Notes under the pieces: model-generated | Told to the model about the DNA's origin: nothing | What the model saw: only the letters and a program-made list of their open reading frames with translations | Database searches by the model: none | Virus record (IMG/VR): IMGVR_UViG_2910123500_000001 | Location: 1-48,939 of that record | Direction: 5' to 3' (one strand) | Length of the DNA stretch: 48,939 nucleotides | DNA from: a virus | Program-made: the position numbers and the translations under genes | Shown: in pieces, positions 3,905 through 27,636 of the stretch | Layout of the letters: each line of letters opens with the position of its first letter | How positions within the stretch are numbered: the stretch's first letter is position 1

Positions 3905-3917
3905 CCTCAGCGTTCCC
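3905..3917 (-). promoter_or_regulatory. Late-leader motif GGGAACGCTGAGG
   Basis: Minus-strand copy with a 19-nt gap between its end and the gpV ATG. Matches the motif family found before the other late operons. Confidence 0.6.
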
Positions 3918-3936
3918 AGGCGGGAAACCTGGGGGC

Positions 3937-4809
3937 ATGAATAATCTAGCGATCGCACCCCAAACCCCCGGCCATCTGGTTCCCCAGCAGGCCAGCTCCG
4001 ACGACCACCTGATTGAGCTTTGGCTGGCGGGCTTCGATTCTCCCAGCACCCGCAAAGCCTATACCAGCGCCATTAATCGGCTGCGGAAGTGGCTTGGCGC
4101 TGTGGGCCTGCGCCAGGTCACCGCCTCCGACCTGGTGGACTACCGCGATAGCTTTAAAGCCAGCTGGAGCGACGCTACCCGCAACCAGCACCTGGCGGCC
4201 ATCAAAAGCCTGTGGAGCTTCGGCTGCGACCTGTGCTACCTGCCCTTCAACGTCCCCCACGCGGTCTACAAGCTCAAAAAGCCGCGCCCGGTTACAGCAG
4301 AGCGCATTCTGACCGAGAAGGAAATGCTCAAAGCCATCCAGTTAGAGCCTGACCCAGGAGCCCAAATCTTTCTACGAATTTTGTACGGAACTGGCATCAG
4401 AGCCAGCGAGGCTATTAGCCTGCGGTGGTGCGACTTTCAGCGCCGTGGGAATCGAGTTTTTCTGCAGGTTCAAAACGGCAAAGGTGGGCAGTTTCGAGAA
4501 ATCGGCTGCCCCCCAAAACTGTACCAAGAGCTGATGGCCCGCCAAAGCCCCACGGCAAGCGGTTCTGAGCTGGTTTTTGGGGTGCCCTATATCCACGCCT
4601 ACAGGTGGGTGAAGCAGGCCCTCACCCGCATCGGCAAACCCGAGGCCTCTCCTCACTGGGCCAGGCACTGTCACGCAGTGGTCAGCCACGAGCACGGAGC
4701 AGATTGGCACTCAATCGCCCGCCAGCTGGGCCATAAGCGGGCCTCATTCACGATGGACCGCTATGGCCACTTCACCGGAAAGGCCAGCTCTGACTATATC
4801 GACTGCTAA
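3937..4809 (+). CDS. Second tyrosine recombinase (XerC/D-like)
   Basis: GIRASE, HWARHCH, LGHKRASFTMDRYGH give the R..HxxR..H..Y catalytic pattern. The ATG at 3937 was chosen because the 3829 start would overlap gpV antisense. Confidence 0.8.
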   Translation: MNNLAIAPQTPGHLVPQQASSDDHLIELWLAGFDSPSTRKAYTSAINRLRKWLGAVGLRQVTASDLVDYRDSFKASWSDATRNQHLAAIKSLWSFGCDLCYLPFNVPHAVYKLKKPRPVTAERILTEKEMLKAIQLEPDPGAQIFLRILYGTGIRASEAISLRWCDFQRRGNRVFLQVQNGKGGQFREIGCPPKLYQELMARQSPTASGSELVFGVPYIHAYRWVKQALTRIGKPEASPHWARHCHAVVSHEHGADWHSIARQLGHKRASFTMDRYGHFTGKASSDYIDC

Positions 4810-4956
4810 AACCCTGAAAGTCTTGCTATCAGAAGCTTTTAGGCTCTTTAGCCTTGATAAGATAATTACCCTTAATTATCGTTAGTTGTGCCCACGCTTG
4901 AAAGCCTTGATCGCCCATGCTACAAAGGCTTCAGCGTTTACAACTTTTGGATTCCT

Positions 4957-5280
4957 ATGAACAAGGGCGAACTCGTAGACAAAGTTTCAGAGAAGGCATC
5001 GGTCACGAAGAAGGAGGCCGATGCCATTATCAGCGCGATTATTGACTCCATCGTAGAGGCCGTTGCTGACGGCCAGAAGGTTACCCTGGTAGGCTTTGGT
5101 TCCTTCGAGCCGCGCTCTCGGGCCGAGCGAGAGGGCCGCAATCCCAAAACTGGCGACACGATGGTCATCCCAGCCAGCGTAGTACCGGCATTCTCGGCAG
5201 GTAAACTGTTCAAAGACCGACTCAAGCCGGAACCCGAGCCGGTGGCCGCCGCTCCAGCCAAGGGCAAAGGCAAAAAGTAG
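4957..5280 (+). CDS. HU/IHF-family DNA-binding protein with a Lys-rich tail
   Basis: MNKGELVDKVSE...VTLVGFGSFEPRSRAEREGRNPKTGD is a classic HU pattern. C-terminus is AAAPAKGKGKK. Confidence 0.85.
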   Translation: MNKGELVDKVSEKASVTKKEADAIISAIIDSIVEAVADGQKVTLVGFGSFEPRSRAEREGRNPKTGDTMVIPASVVPAFSAGKLFKDRLKPEPEPVAAAPAKGKGKK

Positions 5281-5310
5281 TTTCTCTCGCGTTCTTTCTG
5301 CTCTCTATTA

Positions 5311-5337
5311 CCCCGGCCCGTTGGTCGGGGTTTTTTA
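5311..5337 (+). terminator. Rho-independent terminator after the HU gene
   Basis: CCCCGGCC-cgtt-GGTCGGGG stem followed by TTTTTT. Confidence 0.7.
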
Positions 5338-5676
5338 TTGGGCCGGCAGCAGATATTTGCTTAATGCAGCCTCAACCACATCAACCAAAAAGCACCTGTC
5401 CTGCTCAGCTCTGTCCTCAATCGCCTCGACCAAGTCGGCATCGAGCTTGAATTTTTTCTCCACCTTGGGCCGATCGCCAATCTGCCGAGCAGGCTTGGCT
5501 ATGACGTAGTGAGTTATCCGGCCCTGAACGATGGTGCCTGTAACTCGATCCAGCAGCGCTGCTGTCGTGGGCTTCTTTTTAGCTAAGAAATACGCTTTTC
5601 CAAACTCATCCAGCATCACCTGGTTGGGATCTTCATCCGGGTGTGCATCAATTCTTCGCTGGCGTTTAGTGGGCAC
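5335..5676 (-). CDS. Ribbon-helix-helix (CopG-like) DNA-binding protein
   Basis: The C-terminus KFKLDADLVEAIEDRAEQDRCFLVDVVEAALSKYL fits an RHH pattern. GTG start with an AAGGAG Shine-Dalgarno sequence. Confidence 0.45.
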   Translation of the reverse strand: MPTKRQRRIDAHPDEDPNQVMLDEFGKAYFLAKKKPTTAALLDRVTGTIVQGRITHYVIAKPARQIGDRPKVEKKFKLDADLVEAIEDRAEQDRCFLVDVVEAALSKYLLPAQ

Positions 5677-5713
5677 TTTCTGTCTCCTTCAAAAGGGTTC
5701 CTATTGACACTTG

Positions 5714-5727
5714 CCTACAGGGTTCCC
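5714..5727 (-). promoter_or_regulatory. Late-leader motif GGGAACCCTGTAGG
   Basis: Minus-strand copy upstream of the 5676 GTG start. Confidence 0.45.
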
Positions 5728-5858
5728 GCACTTTTCAATGCAACAGGGGAAATCCCAAAATCCTTCCCTCAAAACCCCCTCTCAGGTTCGTAGGCTTTAG
5801 GCTTTGCCCAAAGGAGGAATCCGCGAATCTACTGATATACAACGGTTTTGGCAATTCT

Positions 5859-5872
5859 GGGCACTCTCTGGG
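5859..5872 (+). promoter_or_regulatory. Late-leader motif variant GGGCACTCTCTGGG
   Basis: Its last base is 21 nt upstream of the small terminase ATG at 5893. Confidence 0.45.
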
Positions 5873-5892
5873 ACAGCCGGAGAATAGTTAAT

Positions 5893-6504
5893 ATGCAACG
5901 CCGAACCAGTCAGAAAACCCAAGGGAAAAAAGCCTCTCAAGCTGTTATTAATAAGGGCTTTAAGCTCTTTTGTCAGCAGCAAACTTTAGCTGCGATCGCA
6001 AAGGCAACTGGCTACAGCTCTGAAACTGTCAGCAAGTGGGCCAAAGGCAAATCCCAGACCAACCCCAGCGGCGATAGGAGCGGTCCCTGGAAAGAGCGGC
6101 GCATGGAGCTGCTGCTCAAGGCCCAGACCACACCTCCCGCAGCAGCTGCCCTGGCAGTGGCCCCAGCAGCGCCCCGGCAACAGGCCGAGCGGGTTGTGCT
6201 GGAGGTGGCCAGCGAGGTGGCCAGCAGCAATGTGGTGGACTTTGGGGCTAGGCGCGATCGCAAATCAATTCTGGAGGATTGCAAGACCATCCGGCAGGAG
6301 CTGCGACGGGCGGTGGAGCGCCTGGTGGAGCACGATGACTTTCGCCCCCTAGGCAGCTGCGCCACAGCGTTTGAGAGAATCGCCCGGCTGGAGATTGAGC
6401 TGGACCCTGCCACACCGATGGAGTGGGTTCGGACGGCAGTTGAGCGGGGTTGGTCGGTGCCTGATCTGGCAGATGCGATCGTGGCCGAGCGGAGGGTTAG
6501 CTAG
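5893..6504 (+). CDS. Putative terminase small subunit
   Basis: N-terminal HTH (QQTLAAIAKATGYSSETVSKWAKG). Lies immediately upstream of the large terminase gene. Confidence 0.5.
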   Translation: MQRRTSQKTQGKKASQAVINKGFKLFCQQQTLAAIAKATGYSSETVSKWAKGKSQTNPSGDRSGPWKERRMELLLKAQTTPPAAAALAVAPAAPRQQAERVVLEVASEVASSNVVDFGARRDRKSILEDCKTIRQELRRAVERLVEHDDFRPLGSCATAFERIARLEIELDPATPMEWVRTAVERGWSVPDLADAIVAERRVS

Positions 6505-6506
6505 GT

Positions 6507-7958
6507 GTGGCCCTTTCATCGCTCAAGCAATGGCATGAGGTAGAGCAGTGGGCGCTGGCTAAGAAGCGCCAGGCCGAGGCATCAGACAAGGTGCTGACGT
6601 TCCGTGAGTTCGTCTGCCAGGTGATGCCCTCCTACCAGTGGTATCGGCACTGCGAAGTGCTGGCTGACATTCTGCAGGAGGTGGCCGACGGTAAGCGCCA
6701 CCGGCTAATGATTTTCATGCCGCCCCGGCACGGCAAAAGCCAGCTCACCTCTCGCCTCTTCCCCGCCTACTACCTCTACCGGCACCCAGAGCGCTTTGTT
6801 GGCATCAGCAGCTACGCAGCAGATTTGGCTCACGGCTTCAGCAGAATTTGTCGGGAGAATTACCGCAAGGTAGGTGGCCAAATCAAAAACGATTCTGGCC
6901 AGATTAAGCACTGGGAAACGGTCAGCGGCGGTGGCCTGTGGGCGGCAGGGGTGGGCGGCCCCATCACGGGCAAGGGCTACCACCTGGGCCTGATTGACGA
7001 CCCCTTGAAGAACCACGCCGAGGCCTTCAGCGAGACCATCCGGCGAGGGCAGAAGGAGTGGTATGAATCGACTTTCGCCACTCGTGAGGAGCCTGGCGGC
7101 GCTCAGATTGTCATCCTGACCCGATGGCATGAGGACGACCTGGCAGGCTGGCTGCTGGGCCGGGAAGTGGGCGATGACGAGGAAAGCCCGCCGGAGCACT
7201 GGCACGTCGTCAACCTACCTGCGATCGCAGAGGACGAGGCGATCAAAATCCCCGATACCTGCACCCTGGAGCCGGACTGGCGGCAGCCAGGGCAGCCGCT
7301 GTGCCCCGAGCGCTACTCGCTCTCGCGCCTAGCCAAGTTCAGGAAAAACCCCTACTTCTGGGCGGCCCTCTTCCAGCAGCGCCCCAGCCCACTGGAGGGC
7401 GACTACTTCAAGCGCGACTGGTGGCAGTTCTACCAGCAGCCCCCGGCCAAGTTCGACCGGGTGATTATCTCGGGTGACTGCGCCTTCAAAGAGACCAGCA
7501 GCAGCGACTTTGTGGTGCTCCAGGTGTGGGGCGTGGTGGGCGGCCTGTATTACCTGCTAGACCAGGTGCGAGGTCGCATGGACATCAACGCCACCCTGAC
7601 GGCGGTGCAGGCCCTCTCGGCCAAATGGCCGCAGGCCCGCGCCAAGCTGATTGAGGACAAGGCCAACGGCCCGGCGGTGATCGACCTGCTCAAGCGAAAG
7701 CTGCCAGGTATGATTCCGGTCAACCCCGAGGGCGGCAAGGTAGCGCGGGCAGTGGCTGTGAGCCCCTACGTGCAGTCGGGTAACGTGTTCCTGCCTGAGT
7801 CGGCGCGGTGGGTGCTCGACTTCATTGAGGAGTTCGCCGCCTTCCCCAATGGCTCACACGATGACCAGGTGGATGCGATGACCCAGGCGATCAACTGGCT
7901 AGAGACCGAGGCTCGCAGCCACGGCCCTGCTCAGAAGTCTGGCCGCCGCTTTGCTTAG
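6507..7958 (+). CDS. Terminase large subunit
   Basis: Walker-A-like FMPPRHGKSQ, LGLIDDP, TRWHEDDL and the C-terminal nuclease motif GSHDDQVDAMTQA. Confidence 0.85.
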   Translation: MALSSLKQWHEVEQWALAKKRQAEASDKVLTFREFVCQVMPSYQWYRHCEVLADILQEVADGKRHRLMIFMPPRHGKSQLTSRLFPAYYLYRHPERFVGISSYAADLAHGFSRICRENYRKVGGQIKNDSGQIKHWETVSGGGLWAAGVGGPITGKGYHLGLIDDPLKNHAEAFSETIRRGQKEWYESTFATREEPGGAQIVILTRWHEDDLAGWLLGREVGDDEESPPEHWHVVNLPAIAEDEAIKIPDTCTLEPDWRQPGQPLCPERYSLSRLAKFRKNPYFWAALFQQRPSPLEGDYFKRDWWQFYQQPPAKFDRVIISGDCAFKETSSSDFVVLQVWGVVGGLYYLLDQVRGRMDINATLTAVQALSAKWPQARAKLIEDKANGPAVIDLLKRKLPGMIPVNPEGGKVARAVAVSPYVQSGNVFLPESARWVLDFIEEFAAFPNGSHDDQVDAMTQAINWLETEARSHGPAQKSGRRFA

Positions 7959-8118
7959 GCGTACTACAAGCGGCCTGGGCTAGATCTGGACTAGATTTGG
8001 CCTACTGGCACATAGGTTTTGGGCGTAATCGGGCGTACTACAGAGGCCTCAACCCCGCATTCTCGCGTTGATTAGTTGCCTATACAGCAGCTAGTCACGG
8101 CTGGGAGATTACCCACTA

Positions 8119-8131
8119 GGGAACTCTGAGG
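8119..8131 (+). promoter_or_regulatory. Late-leader motif GGGAACTCTGAGG
   Basis: A 22-nt gap separates its end from the portal ATG. A second, shorter copy GGGCACCTGAG overlaps at 8130-8140. Confidence 0.6.
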
Positions 8132-8153
8132 GCACCTGAGCCGCAGCCCTGCC

Positions 8154-9689
8154 ATGACCTACGACCGAAGCGCCGAGAGACTTAAAGCCACACCCATCAA
8201 CGACGGCCAATCGCCCTTTCCTGACAAGGTGAAGGCGGCGGCTGAAGACAATAAACCTGGCCCCCGCACCCCAGGGGCAAAGTACCGAGAGATGGAGCGC
8301 TTTTGGCAAAAGCTGCGCGATGTGCGCGGCGGCACCGAGGCCATGCGCGACGCGGGCAAGAGTTACTTGCCAGAGGAGCCCGACGAGGCCCCAGAAACAT
8401 ACGCCAACCGACTGGGCCGAGCCACGCTGGCCCCCATCTACGAATGGCTGGTGGGCGTGTTTGTCGGCATGATTATGCGCAAGCCAATTGCTCTGCCGAC
8501 TGAGGGCATCCCCAGCGATGTGCAGGCCCACCTGGCCAATATCGACTTGGAGGGCAGCAGCCTTGATCAGTTCGCCAGTGACCTGCTAGAGTCGGCCATC
8601 GACTACAGCTACTGCGGCGTGCTGGTGGAGTACCCCACTGCCGAAGGTATCGCAACTCGCGCCGATGAGGTGGCTGCGGCCCTGCGGCCCTACTGGGTGG
8701 CTTACCCCGGCGATCGCATTCTCGATATGCGCTGGCACCAGCAGGGCAGCCAGCACTACCTCAAGCAGCTGCGGCTGCTGCAGCACCTCTGCGAGCCCGA
8801 CGGCGACTTTGGCGAGCGCTCAGTGGAGCAGGTGATGGTCTATGACAGAACCCCTGCAGGCGTGACCTGGCGGACGTTTCGGGAGAGCAAAGAGAAGAAA
8901 TGGGTGGAGCACCAGCAGGGCACTCTCAGCCGCGCCGAAATCCCCTTTGAAGTGCTCTGGACAAATCGCAAACAGAAGATCACCAAGCCGCCGATGATTG
9001 AGGCTCTAAACCTCAACATCAGGCACTACCAGCTATCGGCTGACCTGGATTACAGCCTGCACATCGCCAGCGTCCCCCGCTGGCTGTTCTTCGGCACTAC
9101 GGCTGAGGATTTGGGCAGTGTGGGCAGCGTGAGCGAGGCCATCTGCTTCCCCAACGAAAACGCCCGCGCCGAGTGGAGCATCCCCGATATTTCAGCTTTT
9201 GAGCCAGTGCGCGATCGCATGGGTGAGGTGGAGCGCCAGGCCAAAGCAATGGGTCTAGCAGCGATGGTGGCCCAGAAGAACGTGGGTGAAAGCGCCGAGG
9301 CAAAGCGCCTGGACCGTGGCCAGGGTGACTCTCGCCTGGCAGTGCTGGCCCAAACGCTGCAGCAGGTGATCGACCGCTGCCTGGGCCACCACTACGGCTA
9401 CATGGGCCTAACCCCTGCCCAGGCTCCGGCCTGCCAGGTCAACCGCGACTTCGACACCACCACCCTCGATGCAGGGATGCTCGGTGCCCTCACCGGCGCT
9501 GCCAATGCTGGCAAGCTGAGCGACCTGACCTACCACGGCCTGCTCAAGGCGGGCGAAATCGGGCTGCCGGACGATTGGACCCCTGAGCTAGAGGCAGAGC
9601 GGCTGGAGCAGCAGCGAGCCCGCGACACGGCTCGCCCGCTGCTGGCCAATGGCCTGAAAAATCCGCTCGATTCGCTCCTAGAGGGCTAG
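8154..9689 (+). CDS. Portal protein
   Basis: 511 aa, directly after the terminase. Called on size and position only; no family motif was recognised. Confidence 0.65.
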   Translation: MTYDRSAERLKATPINDGQSPFPDKVKAAAEDNKPGPRTPGAKYREMERFWQKLRDVRGGTEAMRDAGKSYLPEEPDEAPETYANRLGRATLAPIYEWLVGVFVGMIMRKPIALPTEGIPSDVQAHLANIDLEGSSLDQFASDLLESAIDYSYCGVLVEYPTAEGIATRADEVAAALRPYWVAYPGDRILDMRWHQQGSQHYLKQLRLLQHLCEPDGDFGERSVEQVMVYDRTPAGVTWRTFRESKEKKWVEHQQGTLSRAEIPFEVLWTNRKQKITKPPMIEALNLNIRHYQLSADLDYSLHIASVPRWLFFGTTAEDLGSVGSVSEAICFPNENARAEWSIPDISAFEPVRDRMGEVERQAKAMGLAAMVAQKNVGESAEAKRLDRGQGDSRLAVLAQTLQQVIDRCLGHHYGYMGLTPAQAPACQVNRDFDTTTLDAGMLGALTGAANAGKLSDLTYHGLLKAGEIGLPDDWTPELEAERLEQQRARDTARPLLANGLKNPLDSLLEG

Positions 9690-9701
9690 GGAACACTGCG
9701 G
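9689..9701 (+). promoter_or_regulatory. Late-leader motif GGGAACACTGCGG
   Basis: The 16-nt stretch CTAGGGAACACTGCGG is identical to the copy at 17934-17949. Its last base is 38 nt upstream of the scaffold ATG. Confidence 0.6.
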
Positions 9702-9738
9702 CTGTAAGCTCTGTGAGCCCCTAGTAGGGAAGAAGCCA

Positions 9739-10488
9739 ATGCCTTTTCAGCTCAAAACCGAATTTGAAAATGTCGATGATGCGATCGCATACATCAAAAC
9801 GCAGGTAGCCCCTGAACTAACGCGACTAGCAGTTATCGAAGAGACCGATTTGCCTGCTGTCAAGCGAAACCGTGATGCCCTCAAGGCCGAAAAAGTGGCG
9901 ACTCAGGAGAAGCTCACCGCCGCCGAAACCAAGGTGAGCGAGCTGGAAGGTAAAACCGCATCCACCGCAGACAAAGACGCCGAGTTCAGTCGCATTCTGG
10001 CTGACCAGAAGGCTGAATTTGATAAGCGCCTCAAAGAGATTGAGGACCGTGAGGCGGTGAAAGAGAAGCAGGCCGCCCAGAATGCTCTGGAGCGAGATGC
10101 GATCGCAGAGCTGAGCAAGGGCCAGTATCGGGTCAATAACGCGGCTCAGGTGTTGGCACTCCACAAGGCCAAAGTGCTTGGCGTGAACGGCGACCTCAAG
10201 CGCGACGAGGCCACCGGTGAGGTATACGTTGACCTAGGCGACTATAAGCGCCAAAGCATTGAGCAGTTTGTCGAGTCGGTAGAGGCCAAAACCGAGAACC
10301 AGCACCTGTTCAAGCCTAAAGGCGGCTCGGGTAGCGAGACTCCGGCGGGCGCTGGCAGCACCGGCGGCGGCGGTGGGGCGGGCGTGAACCCCTTTAAGAA
10401 AGAGACCTGGAACATGACTGAGCAAACCCGTCTCTACCGCACCAACCGGCCCCTCTACGACCGCTACAAGGCCGAATCTGGCAAGTAA
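9739..10488 (+). CDS. Scaffolding protein (putative)
   Basis: Charged, coiled-coil-like sequence located between the portal and capsid genes. Confidence 0.5.
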   Translation: MPFQLKTEFENVDDAIAYIKTQVAPELTRLAVIEETDLPAVKRNRDALKAEKVATQEKLTAAETKVSELEGKTASTADKDAEFSRILADQKAEFDKRLKEIEDREAVKEKQAAQNALERDAIAELSKGQYRVNNAAQVLALHKAKVLGVNGDLKRDEATGEVYVDLGDYKRQSIEQFVESVEAKTENQHLFKPKGGSGSETPAGAGSTGGGGGAGVNPFKKETWNMTEQTRLYRTNRPLYDRYKAESGK

Positions 10489-10518
10489 TTTAGCTTTCCA
10501 TCCCAACAGACCATAGGC

Positions 10519-10551
10519 AGCGCCCCGACTCAAAACCGGGGCGCTTTTTTT
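10519..10551 (+). terminator. Rho-independent terminator
   Basis: 9-bp stem AGCGCCCCG / CGGGGCGCT followed by a T7 run. Confidence 0.75.
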
Positions 10552-10552
10552 C

Positions 10553-10566
10553 GGGAACGTTGAGAG
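10553..10566 (+). promoter_or_regulatory. Late-leader motif variant GGGAACGTTGAGAG
   Basis: Directly after the terminator; its last base is 79 nt upstream of the capsid ATG. Confidence 0.4.
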
Positions 10567-10644
10567 CAGCGCAGGGCAGTGCCCGCGCCATCCGAGGCAG
10601 TGCCGACGATGCACAACCCCCACTGACCTCAACACTTCAGAAAA

Positions 10645-11646
10645 ATGGCTACTACTTCTATTGCAGACATCATCGTTCCAGAGATCTGGGTGCCCTACAT
10701 GCAGGAGCGCACCACCCAGAAATCTGCCCTCTTCCAATCCGGCATCATCGAGCAGTCTGAGACCTACGACGACCTGATCACTAAAGGCGCTAACACCGCC
10801 AATATGCCTTTCTTTAAAGACCTCTCTGGCCGCTCTCAGGGCCTGAGCGAGGACATTCCCCTCAACCCCAAAAAGATCGGCACTGGCGGCGATGTGTGCG
10901 TGATTCAGCGCCGTGGTGATGCCTGGAGCAGCTCCGACCTGGCCAAGGCCCTCTCTGGCGCTGACCCCGCCGATGCGATCGCAGAACTGGTCTCGGATTA
11001 CTGGGTGCGTGACATGCAGACCACCCTGCTGTGCATTCTCAAGGGCGTGTTTGGCTCCACGGCAATGGCAGCCGAACATGTTCGCAACCTCGCCATTGAG
11101 GCCGGTGCTACGGCCACCGAGGACAACCTGATTAGCTCTGGCGGCGTGCTCGATGCCTTCAAGCTGATGGGCGACAAGCTCGACGCTTTTGCTGGGATCG
11201 CCATGCACGGCGATATCTACTGGGAGCTCGAAAAGCAGGACGTGATTGAGTTCTTGGCTCCGAGCGGGCAAAACGACCAGCCGATTCGCACCTATAAGGG
11301 AAAAATGGTGATCGTCGACGACACGATGCCCAAAGTTCCTGGCACCACCAGCGGCTTCAAGTACACCACCTACCTCTTTGGCATGGACACCATCGCTTAC
11401 GGCGAAGGCACGCCCATGGGCGAGTTTGGCGAGGACATCAGCGTCGAAACTGACCGCGACATCCTGGCCGGTAAGGGCTACCTCACCAACCGCCGCCACT
11501 TCACCATGCACCCCAAGGGAGTCAAGTGGAAGGGCATCCTCGCAGGCGCTACCCCCACCGACGCTGAGCTCGAAGCAGCTGCTAGCTGGGAGCGGGTGTT
11601 TGAGAAGAAGAATGTGCCGATCGCAGCCCTAGTCACCAACGGCTAA
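10645..11646 (+). CDS. Major capsid protein
   Basis: 333 aa following the scaffold gene. The N-terminus MATTSIADIIVPEIWVPYMQE is typical of coat proteins. Confidence 0.7.
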   Translation: MATTSIADIIVPEIWVPYMQERTTQKSALFQSGIIEQSETYDDLITKGANTANMPFFKDLSGRSQGLSEDIPLNPKKIGTGGDVCVIQRRGDAWSSSDLAKALSGADPADAIAELVSDYWVRDMQTTLLCILKGVFGSTAMAAEHVRNLAIEAGATATEDNLISSGGVLDAFKLMGDKLDAFAGIAMHGDIYWELEKQDVIEFLAPSGQNDQPIRTYKGKMVIVDDTMPKVPGTTSGFKYTTYLFGMDTIAYGEGTPMGEFGEDISVETDRDILAGKGYLTNRRHFTMHPKGVKWKGILAGATPTDAELEAAASWERVFEKKNVPIAALVTNG

Positions 11647-11676
11647 GGCCAAAGCCACCCTATTGAGGCAAAACCC

Positions 11677-13622: not shown

Positions 13623-13627
13623 GAACC

Positions 13628-13828: not shown

Positions 13829-13834
13829 CCCCTA

Positions 13835-15968: not shown

Positions 15969-15981
15969 GGGCACTCTGAGG
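15969..15981 (+). promoter_or_regulatory. Late-leader motif GGGCACTCTGAGG
   Basis: Located at the end of the 306-bp head-tail gap, with a 7-nt gap before the ATG at 15989. Confidence 0.55.
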
Positions 15982-15988: not shown

Positions 15989-16453
15989 ATGCACCGGAAA
16001 AGTTTTATGCCGACTCCGCCAATCCTTCAGCTCCACCAAGCCCTAGAAGCCGTCGCGCCCATTGATGGCGTGGCGGATCTGGGAGACGGCACCTATCGCA
16101 TTGACTTCAGCGATTCAGCCACTTCAGAGCAGCAAGCTGCTGCAGAGGAACTGGCCAAGATCTGGCAGCCTGAGCCTGAGCAGGAGTGGGCCAAATTCAC
16201 CGACGCCCTGGCTCAGGTGACAGGCTTCTACGCTGCGGTGGCCCAGTCCCCTATGTGCTCATTCATCACAGCTCGCATGGTGCGACTGGCCAGCAGAGAG
16301 GCCTTTCAGGACGCAGCTGACCCGCTGCTGCAGATCTGGAATGCAGCCCCGCCGAACCTGACTGCCGAGCAGCGGGCTGCGGTGCAAGCCCTAGCCGATG
16401 CTCACCACCTCCCCCTAGCCTTCCGTGCCAGCAATCAGATTGAGGTGCAGTAA
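15989..16453 (+). CDS. Hypothetical head-tail joining module protein
   Basis: First ORF of the tail operon. An alternative ATG lies at 16007. Confidence 0.4.
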   Translation: MHRKSFMPTPPILQLHQALEAVAPIDGVADLGDGTYRIDFSDSATSEQQAAAEELAKIWQPEPEQEWAKFTDALAQVTGFYAAVAQSPMCSFITARMVRLASREAFQDAADPLLQIWNAAPPNLTAEQRAAVQALADAHHLPLAFRASNQIEVQ

Positions 16454-16929: not shown

Positions 16930-16931
16930 TT

Positions 16932-17365: not shown

Positions 17366-17378
17366 GGGAATACTGCGA
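17366..17378 (+). promoter_or_regulatory. Late-leader motif variant GGGAATACTGCGA
   Basis: A 25-nt gap separates its end from the ATG at 17404. Confidence 0.4.
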
Positions 17379-17403
17379 TCGCAACCCTCTGAGCAAAAAC
17401 CTC

Positions 17404-17937
17404 ATGGATCTCAGCCCTGCAGAACAGTCTATTAAGGTCCGGCTAGCCCCCCTCAAGCAATTGGGCCTGCGCACCCTGCCTGAGACGGCAGCTGAGGCAG
17501 GCGTGGTAAGCGGCAATGGAACCCTGACCCTGCAATGGACCTCTGACGAACCCGGCGCGGCCACCGACACAATGAGCCGAATGCAGGACTGCGCGGTCAA
17601 TTGGGAAATTGACGGGCGTGTGCGTGGCCTGCGTAACCCCACTCAGGGACTGATCAAAATACGGCAGCTGCTCTACTGGCTGACCATTGGCTTTAAGCCA
17701 GACGGCTGCGGCCCGCTCTACGCTACGGGGTTTCAGTTTCTTGAGCGTGAGAACAACTACTGGCGGTTCAAATATCAGATGGCCTGCAAGAGCAAGCTGA
17801 TTGGCCTTGGCATGGAAGAACCCGGCGACCTGGGTGTGAACCTGAGAGAAATCTTCTTCGACGCCGTGGAGTTGAGCGATCGCTACGGCATCAGCATCTC
17901 GGAGGGAGACCTGCCAGAACCGCCCCCAATTATCTAG
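17404..17937 (+). CDS. Hypothetical tail-completion-like protein
   Basis: Internal ATG of the 16960-17937 ORF. The upstream part of that ORF overlaps the 16932-17345 gene in another frame. Confidence 0.4.
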   Translation: MDLSPAEQSIKVRLAPLKQLGLRTLPETAAEAGVVSGNGTLTLQWTSDEPGAATDTMSRMQDCAVNWEIDGRVRGLRNPTQGLIKIRQLLYWLTIGFKPDGCGPLYATGFQFLERENNYWRFKYQMACKSKLIGLGMEEPGDLGVNLREIFFDAVELSDRYGISISEGDLPEPPPII

Positions 17938-17949
17938 GGAACACTGCGG
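17937..17949 (+). promoter_or_regulatory. Late-leader motif GGGAACACTGCGG
   Basis: Identical to the copy at 9689. A 24-nt gap separates its end from the ATG at 17974. Confidence 0.6.
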
Positions 17950-17973
17950 GGGACAAAGCATTTTGGCCCCGCC

Positions 17974-20252: not shown

Positions 20253-20305
20253 CCTTCTACCTTTCATCCTCCGCCCCCTGCCCTCTACCCACTCACCCCT
20301 AAATC

Positions 20306-20716: not shown

Positions 20717-20841
20717 GCGATTTTAGAGGGCTCTCGGTAGCTGAGCTGCGCTATTGGATTGACGAGATATCAGCAGCTCAGAAGGACGTGGCTGAGGCAG
20801 AAGAGCAGGCCCGACGTGAAGCGGAGAAAAAGCGAAAATGA
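20306..20841 (+). CDS. Chaperone -1 frameshift product (E+E' / GT-like)
   Basis: The -1 frame is open from 20617 to a TGA at 20839-20841 that overlaps the tape measure ATG. The extension reads ...DFRGLSVAELRYWIDEISAAQKD.... Confidence 0.65.
20671..20677 (+). promoter_or_regulatory. Slippery heptamer G GGA AAG (-1 programmed frameshift site)
   Basis: X XXY YYZ in the zero frame (S-G-K). This is the same heptamer used at lambda G/GT. Confidence 0.65.
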
Positions 20842-23081: not shown

Positions 23082-23553
23082 CAGCGCCATTACCCCTAAC
23101 AAACGGCCTAAAGCAGGCACCCAACCCTTTGGCCTGCTGGGCGATATCGAGATTGAGGTCAGCCTGGCCCCGCGCAAATTTAGCTACAACGAGGGCAGCA
23201 GCTTTGCCGAGCACCCCCGCATTGAGGGCACACCAACCCTCCAATACACGGGGGAGGAGCTGCGCAACCTCGATTTGGCGTTTCGGTTTCACTTTGGCTG
23301 GTGCAACCCGGATGAGCAGCTGAAGAAACTGCAGAAAGCCCGGCGCGATCGCAAGCCGATGCTGCTGCTGATTGGCACTGGCAGGTTCAAGACCTACTAC
23401 GTGATTGAGGAGATCAAAGTTGCGCTGACGGACTGCCTGCCCGACGGCGTGACCCTCTCGATTGAGGTTGATGTAAAGCTGGTCGAGACGACTGATCGGC
23501 CTAAGCCGCTGAGCTTGCAGTCCGCCAGCCCCTTCAAGAAGAGGTTGGTCTGA
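23074..23553 (+). CDS. Tail protein, P2 gpU-like
   Basis: FGLLGDIEIEV...FAEHPRIEGTPTLQYTGEELRNLDLAFRF pattern. Confidence 0.65.
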   Translation: MVNSAITPNKRPKAGTQPFGLLGDIEIEVSLAPRKFSYNEGSSFAEHPRIEGTPTLQYTGEELRNLDLAFRFHFGWCNPDEQLKKLQKARRDRKPMLLLIGTGRFKTYYVIEEIKVALTDCLPDGVTLSIEVDVKLVETTDRPKPLSLQSASPFKKRLV

Positions 23554-23771
23554 TGGAATTCACGGCATATCAGACTCTGCAGGGGCAACGGTGGGACGCG
23601 ATCGCTCAGGCGGTCTACGGCTCACCCTATGCCTATGAGGGCATCATTTTCGCTAATCCCCAGTACCGGCACCTGCTACAGCTGCCGGGGGGCGTGGTGC
23701 TGCGCATTCCGGTGGTGGCTCAGACCGAGCCGACGATTCCCAAGGAACTGCTGCCGCCGTGGAAGCGCTAG
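23553..23771 (+). CDS. Tail protein X (LysM-like, P2 gpX-like)
   Basis: YQTLQGQRWDAIAQAVYG...LPGGVVLRIPV pattern. Confidence 0.7.
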   Translation: MEFTAYQTLQGQRWDAIAQAVYGSPYAYEGIIFANPQYRHLLQLPGGVVLRIPVVAQTEPTIPKELLPPWKR

Positions 23772-24232
23772 ACCCTATCAGGGCAGAGCTGTGCTGGCGG
23801 CCCGCTGGGGTTCACCGCACATGGCATGAAGGGATTCGGGTCGAAGTACTTGCAGCCGGGGCAGCCTGCAAAGCGGGATACGGCTGGAGGTGAGGGTGGT
23901 GGGGCAGCTGGCGGGTCGATGATGCAGCGGCAACGCGGGAGCGGCGGCAGGGATGCCCATCGCTCTCGGAACGCCTCACTAGCAGCAAGAAGCTCTGGGC
24001 CAAGATTCTCAAAGACTTTTGTTGCTGCTCGAAGCGCCGCCGCCAATGGCTCAATATTCACTGAAATTCGTAACTGCATCGACCGCCGATGGTGCAGCTT
24101 TCCACCTCGGTATCTGAGCTTGCCGGTAGTCAGCAGGGTGTAAATGCGCTGATACGAAAGCCCAGACTCGGCTCTGTAGGCTGCGATCGCAACCTGGGCC
24201 GAGTCTGGGCTGATTTGGAATAGCTGAGTCAT
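23768..24232 (-). CDS. HTH plus Cys-rich C-terminal domain protein
   Basis: N-terminus AIAAYRAESGLSYQRIYTLLTTGKL is HTH-like. C-terminus is CRC...GCPGCKYFDPNPFMPCAVNP. The ORF extends to 24268. Confidence 0.4.
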   Translation of the reverse strand: MTQLFQISPDSAQVAIAAYRAESGLSYQRIYTLLTTGKLRYRGGKLHHRRSMQLRISVNIEPLAAALRAATKVFENLGPELLAASEAFRERWASLPPLPRCRCIIDPPAAPPPSPPAVSRFAGCPGCKYFDPNPFMPCAVNPSGPPAQLCPDRV

Positions 24233-24303
24233 TACCACGGTTAGGCGGACAATGTGGCGCTCAGTCATGGCGAGTTGATTGAGAGATGTCCAATTCTACC
24301 CAC

Positions 24304-24594
24304 TCACATCGGGTCGATCCCAATAACCAGCGCCTGGTCTAGCCACTGGCTAATCGTCGCTCTGTTGCCGCCGGTGACCATCGCATCAAAGCTCTGCCGC
24401 AGCACCTCTAGCTGGCCAGTATCGTCGCGCCACCCTGGGTAAAAGGCCCAGATCCGGAAATAGGCAGCCAGGTGCGATCGCTCTTCGGCTGTCAGCTCCC
24501 GATCTTCTGTGCAGTAGACCTTTACGGCTTTGGCCAGCTCGCCGCTGGTCTCGTTTCGCCAGTAGACAAGGATGTTTTCCACTATCTCCTCCAA
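24304..24594 (-). CDS. Hypothetical protein
   Basis: 96-aa ORF with a non-ATG (TTG or GTG) start. Confidence 0.35.
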   Translation of the reverse strand: MEEIVENILVYWRNETSGELAKAVKVYCTEDRELTAEERSHLAAYFRIWAFYPGWRDDTGQLEVLRQSFDAMVTGGNRATISQWLDQALVIGIDPM

Positions 24595-24740
24595 ATGAAC
24601 AGATCTGACTGAGCTTTTTTCCAGTCCTGATGGCCAGAGCGAGGGACGTTGACCACAACGGGACCATCAGGGGTTTGAGCGATCATTTCGCGGATGCAGG
24701 GCACCTCACGGATCAAAACGACAGGGGCTTGTGGGGGCAT
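24582..24740 (-). CDS. Small hypothetical protein
   Basis: Internal ATG of the 24582-24839 ORF, 16 nt after the stop codon of the preceding small ORF. Confidence 0.3.
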   Translation of the reverse strand: MPPQAPVVLIREVPCIREMIAQTPDGPVVVNVPRSGHQDWKKAQSDLFIWRR

Positions 24741-24756
24741 AGTTGTAGGTTCAACT

Positions 24757-24897
24757 TTTAGCTTGGCTTGTGATGCGTTGGCGGGTAAGCACGTTGCCGT
24801 TGGCGTCAACTTTGTAGGTGAAGGCCTTGGGGTCGCCACCGAGGAAAAAGTGGGTGACGTAGGCTCTTTGAGTCTCGTTCAAGTCTTCGTAAAACAT
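24757..24897 (-). CDS. Small hypothetical protein (46 aa; below the ORF-track cut-off)
   Basis: Hand translation gives MFYEDLNETQRAYVTHFFLGGDPKAFTYKVDANGNVLTRQRITSQAKS. Confidence 0.25.
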
Positions 24898-24924
24898 ATT
24901 GGGTGAAATAAAGTTGCGGGGAAT

Positions 24925-25374
24925 CTAGGCAGTTCCTTGGGCCTGGCGCACCCAGGCGATCAGCTTTTGCTGCCACTGGCGGTCTCTCTGCTGGTGCAGG
25001 TAGACGCCGATGCCAAACAGCTCGCAGGCTGAGCGAATAGCGTCGGCGGTGGCCCGTTCGATGGGGTCACCCTGGGCCATGTCGTTGCCGTCTCTGCTGA
25101 TCAGCTCGTGCTCGGCTGAACCTGGGGCCTGGCGGGGCACTCCGCAGATGGTTAGGGTGCAGCGGATCACGCAAAACCGCTTGTCTTCATGCACCAGGAA
25201 GATGGGGTCTGAAAATGCGATCGCCCAGTCTTCGGGGCAAATCTGGTCAAGGTAGGCCAGCAGGCTCCTCCAAGGGATGAAGACCCACTGCCCGCCACCG
25301 GGCAGCTTGCGAATCCGGTGAACCTCTGGAGGCAGCTTGGCAGTGAGCTTAGGCAGGACTTCAGTGAGTTTCAT
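24925..25374 (-). CDS. Rad52/DUF1071-like single-strand annealing protein
   Basis: LPGGGQWVFIPWRSLLAYLDQICPEDWAIAF and ATADAIRSACELFGIGVYL resemble conserved Rad52-family segments. Confidence 0.5.
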   Translation of the reverse strand: MKLTEVLPKLTAKLPPEVHRIRKLPGGGQWVFIPWRSLLAYLDQICPEDWAIAFSDPIFLVHEDKRFCVIRCTLTICGVPRQAPGSAEHELISRDGNDMAQGDPIERATADAIRSACELFGIGVYLHQQRDRQWQQKLIAWVRQAQGTA

Positions 25375-25540
25375 TGGTCTTCTCCTGGCGAAAATCTTTG
25401 GTCAGTTCGTCAACAACTCGCGCCTGCTCTTGAAGCCAAACGGCGCGGTGGATGGCCTGCTGCTGGGTGAGTGTCGGATCAGCTTTCCGAAGCCGGTTGG
25501 CTATGGCCTGTGTTTGTCGGGAAACTTGAGGCTCGGTCAT
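25361..25540 (-). CDS. Small protein (59 aa), paralog of the 34322-34453 ORF
   Basis: Hand translation gives MTEPQVSRQTQAIANRLRKADPTLTQQQAIHRAVWLQEQAR.... About 15/31 residues match the other copy. Confidence 0.45.
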   Translation of the reverse strand: MTEPQVSRQTQAIANRLRKADPTLTQQQAIHRAVWLQEQARVVDELTKDFRQEKTNETH

Positions 25541-25602
25541 TTTTCAATTGCTGTAGGGAGTGCTGGAGTGAGGCGAAGGGCGGGGCGGCCCGCCCGTGGG
25601 AT

Positions 25603-26097
25603 TTAGCAGTCAGTTAGCGGCTGCGGGTCGCGCTCGGTCCAGCTCCAGTTCACGGTGTTGGCAGACTGGGTAGCGTAGACAATTTGGCCTTGGCTGTCGC
25701 GGGGGCGTCGGCCCAGTTCGCGCAGGTAGCCCTCCAGATAGGGGCGGTTGAGGAATCGGATTGCATTGCCAAAGGCGGCATCGCAGCTGCCCCAGCAGCG
25801 CCACTCGGTCTCATCCATGACAGCGTCACGCTCGTCGATGGCGATGCGCAGGGTGACCTCCTGAGTGGAGGGTGCGATCGCATTGAGCCGGGCCAGCAGC
25901 TGCTCGATATCAGGCTCGGTGTCGCGGCCAGAGCCACGGTTAATGCCGGGAGCTGCGACGGCGGTAGAACTTGCGATCGCGGGAAATGTTGATACCATTT
26001 GAGTTGAAACTCCATCGATGTGGTTTTCGCAAAACCCCCGCCGACGCCCTGGAAAAGCTGGTGGGGGTTTTGTTGTGTGAGCGGTTAGGTGGCTCAC
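25603..26097 (-). CDS. Hypothetical protein, first gene of the minus-strand cassette
   Basis: An alternative ATG at 25998 has a GGAG Shine-Dalgarno sequence. Divergent from the 26175 gene across a palindromic operator. Confidence 0.4.
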   Translation of the reverse strand: MSHLTAHTTKPPPAFPGRRRGFCENHIDGVSTQMVSTFPAIASSTAVAAPGINRGSGRDTEPDIEQLLARLNAIAPSTQEVTLRIAIDERDAVMDETEWRCWGSCDAAFGNAIRFLNRPYLEGYLRELGRRPRDSQGQIVYATQSANTVNWSWTERDPQPLTDC

Positions 26098-26108
26098 ACC
26101 TCCTATTG

Positions 26109-26155
26109 TCTACAATAGATTGTAGATTGTCAATGCCCTATAATAGGCTATTGAC
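26109..26155. promoter_or_regulatory. Operator/promoter region with palindromes
   Basis: Perfect TCTACAAT-AG-ATTGTAGA at 26109-26126. Imperfect GTCAATGCC...GGCTATTGAC at 26129-26155 encloses TATAAT at 26139-26144. Confidence 0.6.
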
Positions 26156-26174
26156 TAATACTAGTTAACTGTTT

Positions 26175-26450
26175 ATGATTGCCTCACAAAGACTGATAAT
26201 TCGGGAGGCGATTATGACGGCTGCGTTGATGGCGACTATTGATATTTCTGCGTTTTGGCCTGAGGCCAAGACAGTAAACGCTGTGTACGTGGAGTATGGG
26301 CCTAAATTTGGCCTCAATGCTTACACGCTCAAGAAGGCTAAAGAGGGGGATTTGGAGAGCGCAAAGATGGACAACCTGCTGGCTCTGCGACGGCTGTGCA
26401 GCGAATGGGCAGGGCGCGAAGTCTCTCTAGACGAAATTGTCAGGAGCTAG
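26175..26450 (+). CDS. Small Cro/XRE-like regulator (putative)
   Basis: Divergent from the cassette. LNAYTLKKAKEGD...MDNLLALRRLCSEWAGREVSLDEIV is HTH-like. An alternative ATG lies at 26214. Confidence 0.35.
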   Translation: MIASQRLIIREAIMTAALMATIDISAFWPEAKTVNAVYVEYGPKFGLNAYTLKKAKEGDLESAKMDNLLALRRLCSEWAGREVSLDEIVRS

Positions 26451-26521
26451 GCCGTGCTTAAGCACGACTCGGTGGGCCGCTCCGAGCTGCGCCCCTAATT
26501 TTTCCGCCGCATCGGAATGAG

Positions 26522-26555
26522 GCACTAGCCCCCGGCACTCGCTGGGGGCTAGTGC
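26522..26555 (+). other. Perfect 12-bp-stem hairpin
   Basis: GCACTAGCCCCC-ggcactcgct-GGGGGCTAGTGC with no T-run. It sits immediately before the motif at 26561. Confidence 0.6.
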
Positions 26556-26560
26556 TGCAG

Positions 26561-26573
26561 GGGCACTCTGAAG
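26561..26573 (+). promoter_or_regulatory. Late-leader motif GGGCACTCTGAAG
   Basis: A 21-nt gap separates its end from the gpD ATG. Confidence 0.5.
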
Positions 26574-26594
26574 CCATCCCACACCGCTCCTGCT

Positions 26595-27617
26595 ATGCCC
26601 CGCGCCGCCGTCTTTAAGCTCACTTACCTGGGCACCGACATCACCAACGAGATCAACCCGCTGACCCTCCAGATTGCCTACACGGACAACCTGGAGGGGG
26701 AGGCCGATGACCTGGCCATTGCGCTGCTCAACTCTGACCTGCGGTGGCTCGATACGTGGTTGCCCGCCGAGGGTGATCGCGTGGCCTTGGAGCTGGGCTA
26801 TGAGGGTGAGGCGCGTCTAGGGCCGGTGCAGTTTGAGGTGGATGAGCCAGAGTGGTCGGGTATGCCTGACGGGTTCAAGTTGCAGGCGCAGGCGGTGCCG
26901 CTGACCTCCAGTTTGAGGGAGCGCCGCAGTCAGGCTTACGAGAACACGACCCTGCGTGCGATCGCAAGCCGAATTGCTGAAAAGCACGGCCTGGAGCTGG
27001 TTGGCGAGATTCCTAACATCAGGTTCAAGCGCCTGTCACAGTCGGAGCAGACCGATCTCGAGTTTTTGCGCGAGACGGCGGCTGAATACGGCCTGCTGTT
27101 CAAAATTGAGGGCACCACGCGCCTGGTATTTTTTCAAGAGAGCGACCTGGAGGCGGCAGCGCCGGTGCTCACCGTCAAGCGCACTGAGATGGCCAACTAC
27201 CGGCTCAGACGGAGCGCGTCGGGCACCTACAAGGCGGCCACCGTGAGCTACCAGAACGCTGAGAGCGGCGAGTTCATCGAGGTCACGATTGACCTCAACG
27301 GAGCCGAGGTGCCCAAGCCCAAGGATGGGCAGGAGGGTGCGATCGCGAGTGAGTCGATCCTGCGTATCCGCGAACGGGTGGAGAGCCGGGCCCAGGCTCG
27401 ATTAAAAGCGGTGGCTGCCCTCAAGCGGGCCAACAGTGCGCGGGTGGAGCTGGACTTTGAGGCTGAGGGCAATGTGCTCTTTGCGGCGGGCAGCTGCTTC
27501 ACCTTGGAGGGTTTCAAACGGCTCGACGGCAAGTATCTGCTCAGCCGGGTGCGGCACCAGCTCGATAAGGGCCGAGGCTATCGGTGCAGCGTGGAGGCGC
27601 GGAAAGTCGAGGGCTGA
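26595..27617 (+). CDS. Baseplate hub / late control protein D (gpD, VgrG-like)
   Basis: LTYLGTDIT...LQIAYTDNLEGEADDLAIAL...YKAATVSYQN pattern, 340 aa. Confidence 0.8.
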   Translation: MPRAAVFKLTYLGTDITNEINPLTLQIAYTDNLEGEADDLAIALLNSDLRWLDTWLPAEGDRVALELGYEGEARLGPVQFEVDEPEWSGMPDGFKLQAQAVPLTSSLRERRSQAYENTTLRAIASRIAEKHGLELVGEIPNIRFKRLSQSEQTDLEFLRETAAEYGLLFKIEGTTRLVFFQESDLEAAAPVLTVKRTEMANYRLRRSASGTYKAATVSYQNAESGEFIEVTIDLNGAEVPKPKDGQEGAIASESILRIRERVESRAQARLKAVAALKRANSARVELDFEAEGNVLFAAGSCFTLEGFKRLDGKYLLSRVRHQLDKGRGYRCSVEARKVEG

Positions 27618-27623
27618 GCCTCA

Positions 27624-27636
27624 GGGAACTTTAAAG
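27624..27636 (+). promoter_or_regulatory. Weak late-leader motif variant GGGAACTTTAAAG
   Basis: Located between the gpD stop codon and the FHA gene start. Confidence 0.3.

Follow-up and report, generated by a model that had tools for sequence, protein, structure and literature searches.

What switches on the late genes of a prophage in which almost every virion operon is preceded by the same short element? The question is raised by IMG/VR record IMGVR_UViG_2910123500_000001, a viral stretch of 48,939 nucleotides that was analysed whole and is referred to here as the window. An initial annotation had noted in it a 13-mer leader motif (GGGMACNCTGMGG) and had proposed this as a promoter for a sigma factor of the SigB/SigF class encoded by the phage itself. 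Judged from sequence comparison, the 13-mer very probably belongs to the J-Box or SigF -12 class of promoters, and a short "GGG + -10" promoter thus appears to stand before almost every virion operon of a cyanobacterial prophage. The reading that we prefer, with a probability of roughly 0.65, is that these would be late promoters for a polymerase of the SigF/SigJ type, driven mainly by the phage's own sigma factor through positive feedback; that the phage sigma is the main driver of the J-Box promoters seems, taken by itself, reasonably probable. The promoter class named in the initial annotation is supported by the invariant letters GGG, A5 and T9 of the motif and by the lack of a -35 element. 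Its dependence on the phage rather than the host copy of the sigma we infer, as we do transcription start at the sites and the feedback loop.

Copies of the 13-mer and their placement

Five exact copies of GGGMACNCTGMGG are present in the window, against an expectation of 0.10 and a maximum of 2 in 100 dinucleotide-preserving shuffles of the same stretch, in agreement with the earlier claim that the motif exceeds chance. They begin at 3905 (3905-3917, minus strand) and at 8119, 9689, 15969 and 17937 (plus strand), exactly where strong copies had been annotated. A sixth copy listed as strong, at 26561, is present but carries one mismatch to the pattern (GGGCACTCTGAAG). The copies annotated as weaker are also there, with two mismatches each at 5859, 10553 and 17366 and three at 27624, and with two at 5715-5727 on the minus strand, a site first given as 5714. 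The copy at 27624 (GGGAACTTTAAAG) was detected by a weight-matrix scan only. When two mismatches are allowed the pattern occurs 37 times in the window where 27 are expected, which is near chance, and the case therefore rests on the strong copies and their locations.

The weight matrix was trained on nine copies and applied with a threshold of at least 11 bits, together with a gene map derived from codon statistics. It gave 18 matches, 15 of which are intergenic, in a window where intergenic DNA makes up 11.3% of the sequence (binomial p = 4e-12); this comparison with coding DNA had been set as a test in the initial annotation. Among the nine matches outside the training set six are intergenic (p = 1e-4). 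The scan also added a copy at 37001-37013 on the minus strand (GGGAATTCTGAGC), absent from the original list and from the training set.

All twelve accepted copies are oriented toward the gene that follows, with 19-79 nucleotides (nt) between the end of the motif and the start codon, and in eight of the twelve this gap is 19-25 nt (Table 1). The 41-nt gap ahead of the FHA-domain gene uses our own reading of its start, at 27678; the longest open reading frame begins with a GTG at 27639, which would leave 2 nt. As annotated, the sites at 9689 and 17937 share an identical 16-mer (CTAGGGAACACTGCGG, at 9686 and 17934). The TAG inside it is the stop codon of the gene before, its last base serving as the first G of the motif. 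Eleven of the copies fall in the virion region, 3.9-27.6 kb, and the remaining 18.6 kb holds one good copy, that at 37001-37013. The capsid and gpD copies are each preceded, at a distance of 1-4 nt, by a terminator-like hairpin, in line with independent transcription units. The capsid-site hairpin is identical in the close relative described below. That at the gpD site has a folding energy of -36.1 kcal/mol (RNA fold of 26512-26560), and its counterpart in the relative is a 10-bp hairpin of -21.1 kcal/mol followed by a U-run (L008:7040-7090).

The relative, a Trichocoleus metagenome-assembled contig with 86% identity in the portal protein and 89% in gpD, keeps the motif at 11 orthologous sites: those of gpV, the 5676 gene, the small terminase, portal, scaffold, capsid, the genes starting at 16007, 17404 and 17974, gpD and FHA. 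In the ten orthologous pairs compared, motif positions 1-10 are each identical in 9-10 pairs. Identity over the preceding 30 nt is no more than 27-50% at four of the sites (portal, scaffold, 17404 and gpD). The motif is 92% identical at both the portal and the 17366 sites, with upstream flanks of 37% and 27% identity, respectively. The motif is unchanged at the scaffold and 17937 sites, as it is at the gpV site (L006:4437). Elsewhere the counterparts are GGGAACACTATGC for the 5715 site (L006 6544-6552, minus strand), GGGAACTCTGGGG for the small terminase, a better match than the window's own copy (L006:6685), and GGGCACTCTGGGG for both the 15969 site (L006:17891) and gpD (L008:7091). Conservation extends into the leader downstream of the motif at the portal and capsid sites. 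No strong copy was found in the non-virion region of the relative.

Alignment of 24 copies, twelve from the window and twelve from the relative, shows GGG, A5 and T9 to be invariant in all 24, with a consensus hexamer AAC(A/T)CT. The GAGG half of the motif is variable and also appears as GCGG, GGGG, GAAG or TCTGG. With the 24 copies aligned on GGG no upstream column is conserved and no TAGGC is seen, in accord with the earlier remark that a consistent -35 element could not be found. The -35 region of the copies is not AT-rich, at 41% A+T compared with 42% overall.

Table 1. Candidate J-Boxes and associated features of the window; gaps run from the end of the motif to the start codon
Feature	Position	Strand	Sequence	Gap (nt)	Remarks
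Candidate J-Box	3905..3917	-	GGGAACGCTGAGG	19	Exact; before ATG 3885 of gpV-gpW-gpJ-gpI baseplate operon
Weaker candidate J-Box	5715..5727	-	GGGAACCCTGTAG	38	Matrix 11.8, intergenic; before GTG of 113-aa gene 5335-5676
Candidate J-Box	5859..5871	+	GGGCACTCTCTGG	21	Before ATG 5893 of presumed small terminase
Candidate J-Box	8119..8131	+	GGGAACTCTGAGG	22	Exact; before portal ATG 8154
Candidate J-Box	9689..9701	+	GGGAACACTGCGG	37	Exact; overlaps portal stop; before scaffold ATG 9739
Terminator hairpin	10519..10552	+			9-bp G+C stem, U-run; -18.8 kcal/mol; ends 1 nt before capsid J-Box
Candidate J-Box	10553..10565	+	GGGAACGTTGAGA	79	Before major capsid ATG 10645
Candidate J-Box	15969..15981	+	GGGCACTCTGAGG	25	Exact; before ATG 16007, first gene of next virion operon
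Candidate J-Box	17366..17378	+	GGGAATACTGCGA	25	Before ATG 17404 (Gp37-like protein)
Candidate J-Box	17937..17949	+	GGGAACACTGCGG	24	Exact; overlaps upstream stop; before ATG 17974 (tail gene block)
16-bp hairpin	26521..26556	+			Ends 4 nt before gpD J-Box; no U-run in window
Candidate J-Box	26561..26573	+	GGGCACTCTGAAG	21	One mismatch; before gpD ATG 26595
Degenerate candidate J-Box	27624..27636	+	GGGAACTTTAAAG	41	Matrix 11.1; core GGG..A...T intact; before FHA-EAL-sigma cassette
FHA-domain protein	27678..28262	+			First cassette gene; Pfam FHA E = 3e-18; conserved in relative
EAL protein	28136..29344 (longest open reading frame)	+			Cyclic-di-GMP phosphodiesterase family; Pfam EAL E = 1e-59; conserved in relative
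Group-3 sigma factor, SigF subfamily	29460..30230	+			Proposed reader of the J-Boxes
Candidate J-Box	37001..37013	-	GGGAATTCTGAGC	22	Matrix 13.6, intergenic; before ATG of gene 36244-36978

Likeness to J-Box and SigF promoters

The motif closely resembles the J-Box. Gonzalez et al. 2019 (PMC6495340) aligned 93 SigJ-dependent promoters of Nostoc punctiforme on GGG and obtained the consensus GGGaAtacT, in which GGG was read as an extended -10 element and aAtacT as the -10 hexamer, with nearly invariant A and T and a weak -35; at gvpA, transcription starts 10 bp from the centre of the hexamer. In that data set GGGAATACT occurs 41 times and GGGAACACT 9 times. The pilB J-Boxes given there include GGGCACGCTGGGG in S. 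elongatus PCC 7942, GGGAACACT in Geitlerinema PCC 7407, GGGCATGCTGAGA in Acaryochloris and CTAGGGAATAGT (GGGAATAGT) in Synechocystis, and the authors suggest that SigF reads J-Boxes in species without SigJ.

Like the J-Box, the phage motif has a GGG trio directly before a hexamer with invariant A and T, lacks a strong -35 element, faces forward and stands close to a gene. The consensus GGGaAtacT is comparable to GGGAAC(A/T)CT here, the variants GGGAACACT and GGGAACTCT are both present in the published J-Box set, and the first nine letters of GGGAATACTGCGA, at 17366, are the Nostoc consensus GGGAATACT. Moreover, J-Boxes of high-GC hosts have a G-rich continuation as the phage motif does. That of S. 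elongatus pilB (GGGCACGCTGGGG) fits the phage pattern except at position 11, which is G, as in copies of the relative. The two differ in that the J-Box -35 region is AT-rich, if weakly conserved, and in that J-Boxes have been published for host genes only (pili, motility, gas vesicles, cell shape), whereas here they would stand before phage virion operons.

A second point of comparison is PpilA1 of Synechocystis PCC 6803, a SigF promoter described by Asayama and Imamura 2008 (PMC2532724), which has GGG followed by TAAGTT with T at -7 and needs both a -32 TAGGC element and an AG-rich tract. Its -12 region (GGGTAAGTT) has GGG and then a hexamer with T at -7, as in the phage motif, and the phage sigma belongs to the subfamily that reads PpilA1. 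The two differ at -12, which is T in PpilA1 and A/C in the phage motif, and at -10, which is A in PpilA1 and C/T in the phage motif. Neither the -32 element nor the AG-rich tract is conserved here: the -32 element would be expected about 16 nt before GGG, but alignment and inspection of the flanks revealed no TAGGC, nor a YAGGC at constant spacing from the copies.

By analogy with these promoters, GGG (motif positions 1-3) would form the extended -10 element at about -15 to -13, (A/C)A(C/T)N(C/T)T (positions 4-9) the -10 hexamer, with the invariant A at -11 and T at -7, and G(A/C)GG (positions 10-13) a G-rich segment lying downstream of the hexamer and before the start site. The GGG-rich -10 element proposed in the initial annotation stands in this sense, but GGG(A/C)AC would not itself be the hexamer. 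Transcription is predicted to start about 7 nt downstream of T9, or 3-4 nt beyond the end of the 13-mer, and 5' leaders would therefore be about 16-22 nt long at eight of the twelve sites. J-Box-type promoters require no specific -35 element, and the missing -35 would be explained by the element being an extended -10 promoter of this type. A group-3 sigma of the SigF/SigJ type on RNA polymerase would read all twelve promoters, which would split the virion genes of a tRNA-integrated prophage into short transcription units.

The SigF-type sigma and competing readings

The prophage would supply this sigma itself, from an FHA-EAL-sigma cassette just after gpD. The sigma gene annotated at 29460-30230 is real, and the protein falls in the SigF subfamily, scoring 366 bits on NCBIfam PRK07408 (RNA polymerase sigma factor SigF; cut-off 261). 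Pfam recognises region 2 (63 bits), region 3 (33 bits) and region 4 (40-45 bits), without region 1. The database record of the protein is that of Pseudanabaena sp. FACHB-2040. Its top database matches are the chromosomal SigF proteins of Leptolyngbya-like cyanobacteria, at 65-72% identity, with the relative's copy at 73%; in our alignment it is 63-74% identical to these chromosomal proteins and the relative's copy, and regions 2, 3.0 and 4.2 are almost the same as in chromosomal SigF. SigF has an r2-r3-r4 architecture and SigJ (alr0277) belongs to an r2-r4 family (PMC11119718), and by domain architecture and NCBIfam assignment the phage sigma looks like SigF rather than SigJ. Peptides deduced from published quantitative PCR primers were uninformative on SigF versus SigJ orthology.

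The sigma gene sits between gpD and a set of minus-strand genes, inside the prophage bounded by 45-nt repeats, and the FHA, EAL and sigma genes follow gpD in the relative as well (L008:8210-10765). At the corresponding place before the cassette the relative has a perfect GGGAACTCTGAGG (L008:8153). A J-Box ahead of the cassette suggests positive autoregulation, in parallel with the autoregulation of sigF in Synechocystis (PMC2532724), and once some sigma had been made the cassette and the virion operons would therefore reinforce each other.

Several features of the cassette are recorded as side observations. Besides its EAL domain, the second protein has a PAS_9 match of 25.1 bits, under the 27-bit threshold of that family, and the cassette may alter host cyclic-di-GMP signalling and motility. 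On an Egbenema chromosome two FHA-domain genes adjoin sigF (L029:75-1729). The 5' regions of host sigF genes (L026, L028, L029) have common conserved blocks, AACGATGGTT ... GCAAGGTG, and the spacer before the phage sigma gene (29345-29459), partly conserved in the relative, is loosely like the first of these (AACGATGGTT); sigF may have been taken up by the phage along with a portion of its leader. No conserved autoregulatory GGG motif was found in the 400 nt upstream of these three host genes.

A phage sigma paired with a distinctive virion-gene promoter is also found in Bacillus phage SPO1 (gp28, gp33/34) and in T4 (gp55), where these factors turn on middle or late genes. The SPO1 and T4 sigmas are highly diverged and phage-specific. 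The sigma described here was, by contrast, copied recently from a host; it is still about 70% identical to SigF of host chromosomes, and its specificity is therefore probably common with that of a host regulon. SigF/SigG-like sigma genes occur in Bacillus phages (PMC9429907), and tblastn found sigma genes of 29-34% identity in many of the phages listed there. Sigma-70-type genes are described for cyanophages and cyanobacterial prophages, including S-LBS1 and a prophage of Ca. Synechococcus feldmannii, in the available text of PMC12284385. The latter prophage combines, as here, gpV/W/J/D-type (P2-like) tail genes with a sigma factor. That text calls these sigmas rpoD-like, reads them as modulators of host metabolism and reports no cognate phage promoter.

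The most serious rival explanation assigns the J-Boxes to host SigF or SigJ, the FHA-EAL-sigma cassette then being an accessory module that reprogrammes host pilus, motility and cyclic-di-GMP physiology, and not a late-gene regulator. We consider this unlikely as the whole account, although a host sigma as reader is compatible with reading by the phage sigma. Because the phage sigma hardly differs from chromosomal SigF in its DNA-reading regions, a host sigma may read the same promoters; the same motif stands before host pilB genes, EAL and FHA are signalling domains and not virion parts, and cyanophage sigmas have so far been interpreted as host modulators (PMC12284385). If a host sigma sufficed, however, a lysogen would express its virion genes whenever SigF was active. 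Furthermore, the cassette of the relative lies behind a perfect J-Box beside gpD and would therefore be co-regulated with the virion genes. Four metagenomic contigs with a gpD of 55% identity have neither the cassette nor a strong motif within 10 kb either side of gpD; these contigs are the sole negative control for the co-occurrence of sigma and motif and represent a single lineage contrast.

The initial annotation had allowed for an RNA-level signal or an activator site, and both fit poorly. A translation-initiation or ribosome-loading signal, or a processing or protein-binding site in the 5' leader, might account for the tight 19-25 nt spacing to the start codon in eight of the copies, for the conserved leader after the motif at the portal and capsid sites of the relative and for the GAGG in one motif half, which resembles a Shine-Dalgarno core. 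Yet it is GGG, A5 and T9 that are invariant and not the GAGG half, which at 19-79 nt from the start codon is too far away for a Shine-Dalgarno site. The motif and the 47 nt after it (60 nt each) show no common fold (mean z = 0.02) and no Rfam match, terminators end 1-4 nt upstream of two copies, and the 51-nt divergent gap that holds the gpV copy leaves no room for a promoter upstream; we therefore regard action in RNA as improbable. The P2-like virion module brings to mind a late activator or repressor of the P2 Ogr or Mu C type that would bind the motif and work with the housekeeping sigma, and late promoters of P2-type phages are indeed activator-dependent. The motif lacks dyad symmetry, however, and TGT-N12-ACA, the Ogr dyad that lies near -55 in P2, does not occur within 90 nt upstream of any of the 12 copies (six instances are present in the whole window). 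A core promoter downstream of the motif would lack room, since with a gap of 19-25 nt transcription would start inside the gene, and no sigma-70-type -10/-35 pair accompanies the copies; in a sigma-70 consensus scan the matches did not coincide with them, two weak ones lying in the 300-nt gap upstream of 15969. An activator or repressor site is in our estimate very improbable. Chance matches or non-functional repeats, such as remnants of a small mobile repeat, would suit the near-chance count of the two-mismatch pattern, but are hardly credible in view of the number of exact copies, their confinement to intergenic DNA, their uniform facing and their retention in the relative despite diverged flanks.

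To return to late promoters driven mainly by the phage sigma, a number of points weigh against this interpretation. The J-Box was defined for SigJ, and the sigma here looks like SigF, whose sole dissected promoter reads GGGTAAG with a -32 TAGGC that is absent from the phage sites. Host SigF should read the same promoters, given the near identity of regions 2, 3.0 and 4.2; this reading does not account for the silence of the virion genes in a lysogen; and the sigma copy on the phage might have some other function. In the window the cassette is preceded by a degenerate J-Box (27624), and the conserved 115-nt spacer before the sigma gene may contain a separate promoter. One good copy, at 37001-37013, stands before a gene that has no family match and lies outside the virion region. 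Finally, among the genomes compared, sigma and motif are seen together in one lineage only.

Late sigma factors of phages have been described before, and so have J-Box promoters. We found no report linking a cyanobacterial prophage sigma gene to a set of phage promoters; the literature found treats cyanophage and prophage sigma genes as modulators of host metabolism without an assigned promoter. In this prophage a promoter class, about 12 sites, a SigF-type sigma carried by the phage and, probably, a feedback loop together make up a testable circuit. Its confirmation would mean that the J-Box/SigF code is used by phages besides host motility genes, that an alternative sigma of the host, with very little divergence, can be put to use by a phage to regulate its late genes, and that prophage induction may be coupled to the host pilus and motility regulon. 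The compact, -35-independent promoters and their matching sigma could also provide an orthogonal expression pair in cyanobacteria. A bolder and rather doubtful proposal is that every virion operon of the prophage has become part of the host SigF/SigJ pilus and motility regulon, the SigF copy with EAL and FHA acting as a J-Box-driven positive-feedback switch that fires the virion genes while activating the J-Box genes of the host (for type IV pili and motility) and reducing cyclic-di-GMP. Were this true, host sigma activity could trigger or prime the prophage, and phage development and a host behavioural programme would have one promoter code.

The prophage, other genomes and further J-Box-like sites

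The window has a G+C content of 58% and is rich in the cyanobacterial HIP1 octamer GCGATCGC, which is seen in the flanks of the sites. Its ends are a 45-nt exact direct repeat (1-45 and 48895-48939) that aligns to positions 31-71 of the tRNA model and covers the anticodon loop to the 3' end. The window is probably a prophage cut at attachment-site repeats in a tRNA gene, with the repeat as attachment-site core. A weak integrase-family match at 47654-48760 (minus strand) adjoins the right-end repeat. The gene content is that of a P2-like myovirus. At the left end the minus-strand gpV, gpW, gpJ and gpI form the baseplate operon (Pfam Phage_base_V, GPW_gp25, Baseplate_J and Tail_P2_I), and the other virion genes of the window include the large terminase, portal, scaffold, capsid and gpD; the tube, tape-measure, gpU and gpX families were identified in the relative. 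The gene at 9739 encodes a phrog_206 head scaffolding protein. The small terminase is labelled from its position ahead of the large terminase, its HTH_23 match being sub-threshold only, and the major capsid protein has a weak Gp13-like match of 24.9 bits, under the Pfam threshold of 26.4 bits. In the right half are a DUF3854/AAA protein of 1116 residues and the gene 36244-36978 (244 residues), which has no Pfam or PHROG match.

The virion families gpV, W, J, I, D, U and X are those of P2, in which ogr lies immediately after gpD, at the place occupied here by the sigma cassette. P2 uses the Ogr zinc-finger activator at four late promoters, whereas this prophage would use a sigma factor at about 12. 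A second tyrosine recombinase (XerC/D-like, 3937-4809) and an HU/IHF-like DNA-binding protein (4888-5280) are encoded between the baseplate operon and the terminase genes, an unusual place for a P2-like layout. The window's strongest sigma-70-type matches, at 26105-26179, stand apart from every copy of the motif. They form a divergent pair, TTGACT-17-TATGAT (plus strand) and TTGACA-17-GACAAT (minus strand), each matching at 10 of 12 positions, and separate a minus-strand gene (25603-25998) from a plus-strand gene (26175-26450). This segment looks like a repressor/Cro-type switch region within the tail gene block, and the relative has an HTH_3-type gene at this place (L009:5505-5711).

No near-identical phages were found in GenBank. 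In more distant relatives (L001-L005 and L007; portal 34-43% identical) the pattern GGG[AC]AC.CTG has zero copies in L001-L005, and with a looser pattern L007 has a single look-alike, in a coding region. A still looser pattern gave 0-2 intergenic J-Box-like sites per locus, by rough estimate not above chance, and no common motif was seen by eye in the upstream regions of these phages. They have a different sigma-like gene upstream of the terminase (L002:5515-5913, L003:6331-6612, L004:4065-4463 and L007:42-218), 36-56% identical to the phage sigma over the matching region 2-3 stretch; in L002 the open reading frame, 5563-6144, encodes 193 residues. These loci are without a multi-copy J-Box, and another promoter code may be in use there. 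Among viral contigs with sigma homologues of 33-46% identity (L011-L017), no clear excess of the core pattern was seen within 10 kb of the sigma gene.

Some further J-Box-like sites in the window were noted alongside the accepted copies. In the 51-nt divergent gap upstream of gpV, GGGAAACCTGGGG (3922-3939, plus strand) is arranged back to back with the gpV J-Box and ends 2 nt before the ATG at 3937 of the tyrosine-recombinase gene; its predicted start would be the A of this ATG, giving a leaderless mRNA, and the element and the ATG are conserved in the relative opposite L006:4437. Another site, GGGCACTCT (3444-3456, minus strand), falls within the 3' end of gpV, some 15 nt ahead of the stop codon and upstream of gpW; for this site the relative has the better match GGGCACTCTCTGG (L006:3973, minus strand); it may be an internal promoter, or conserved merely as coding DNA. 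The plus-strand GGGAAACTTGAGG at 25519-25531, in a 228-nt gap between two minus-strand genes and oriented against both, could be an antisense promoter or a chance match. At 36168-36229 (plus strand) a spacer of about 10 nt separates the J-Box-like GGGCAAACTGTGG from a highly stable terminator hairpin with a U-run (36181-36232, -32 kcal/mol). The transcript could be very short, or the match could be fortuitous, next to a terminator that works in both directions.

The 9-mer GGGAATTCT, a J-Box core that is also present in the window at 37005-37013, recurs in other cyanobacterial viral contigs, at L011:14077, 16516 and 1577 (minus strand), L012:1996, L015:3887, L003:7981 and L002:12337. Several of these contigs encode sigma homologues of 33-37% identity. 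The site at L011:14077 follows a terminator-like T-run and lies 27 nt ahead of a gene, and the recurrence of the 9-mer may reflect a wider use of J-Boxes by phages.

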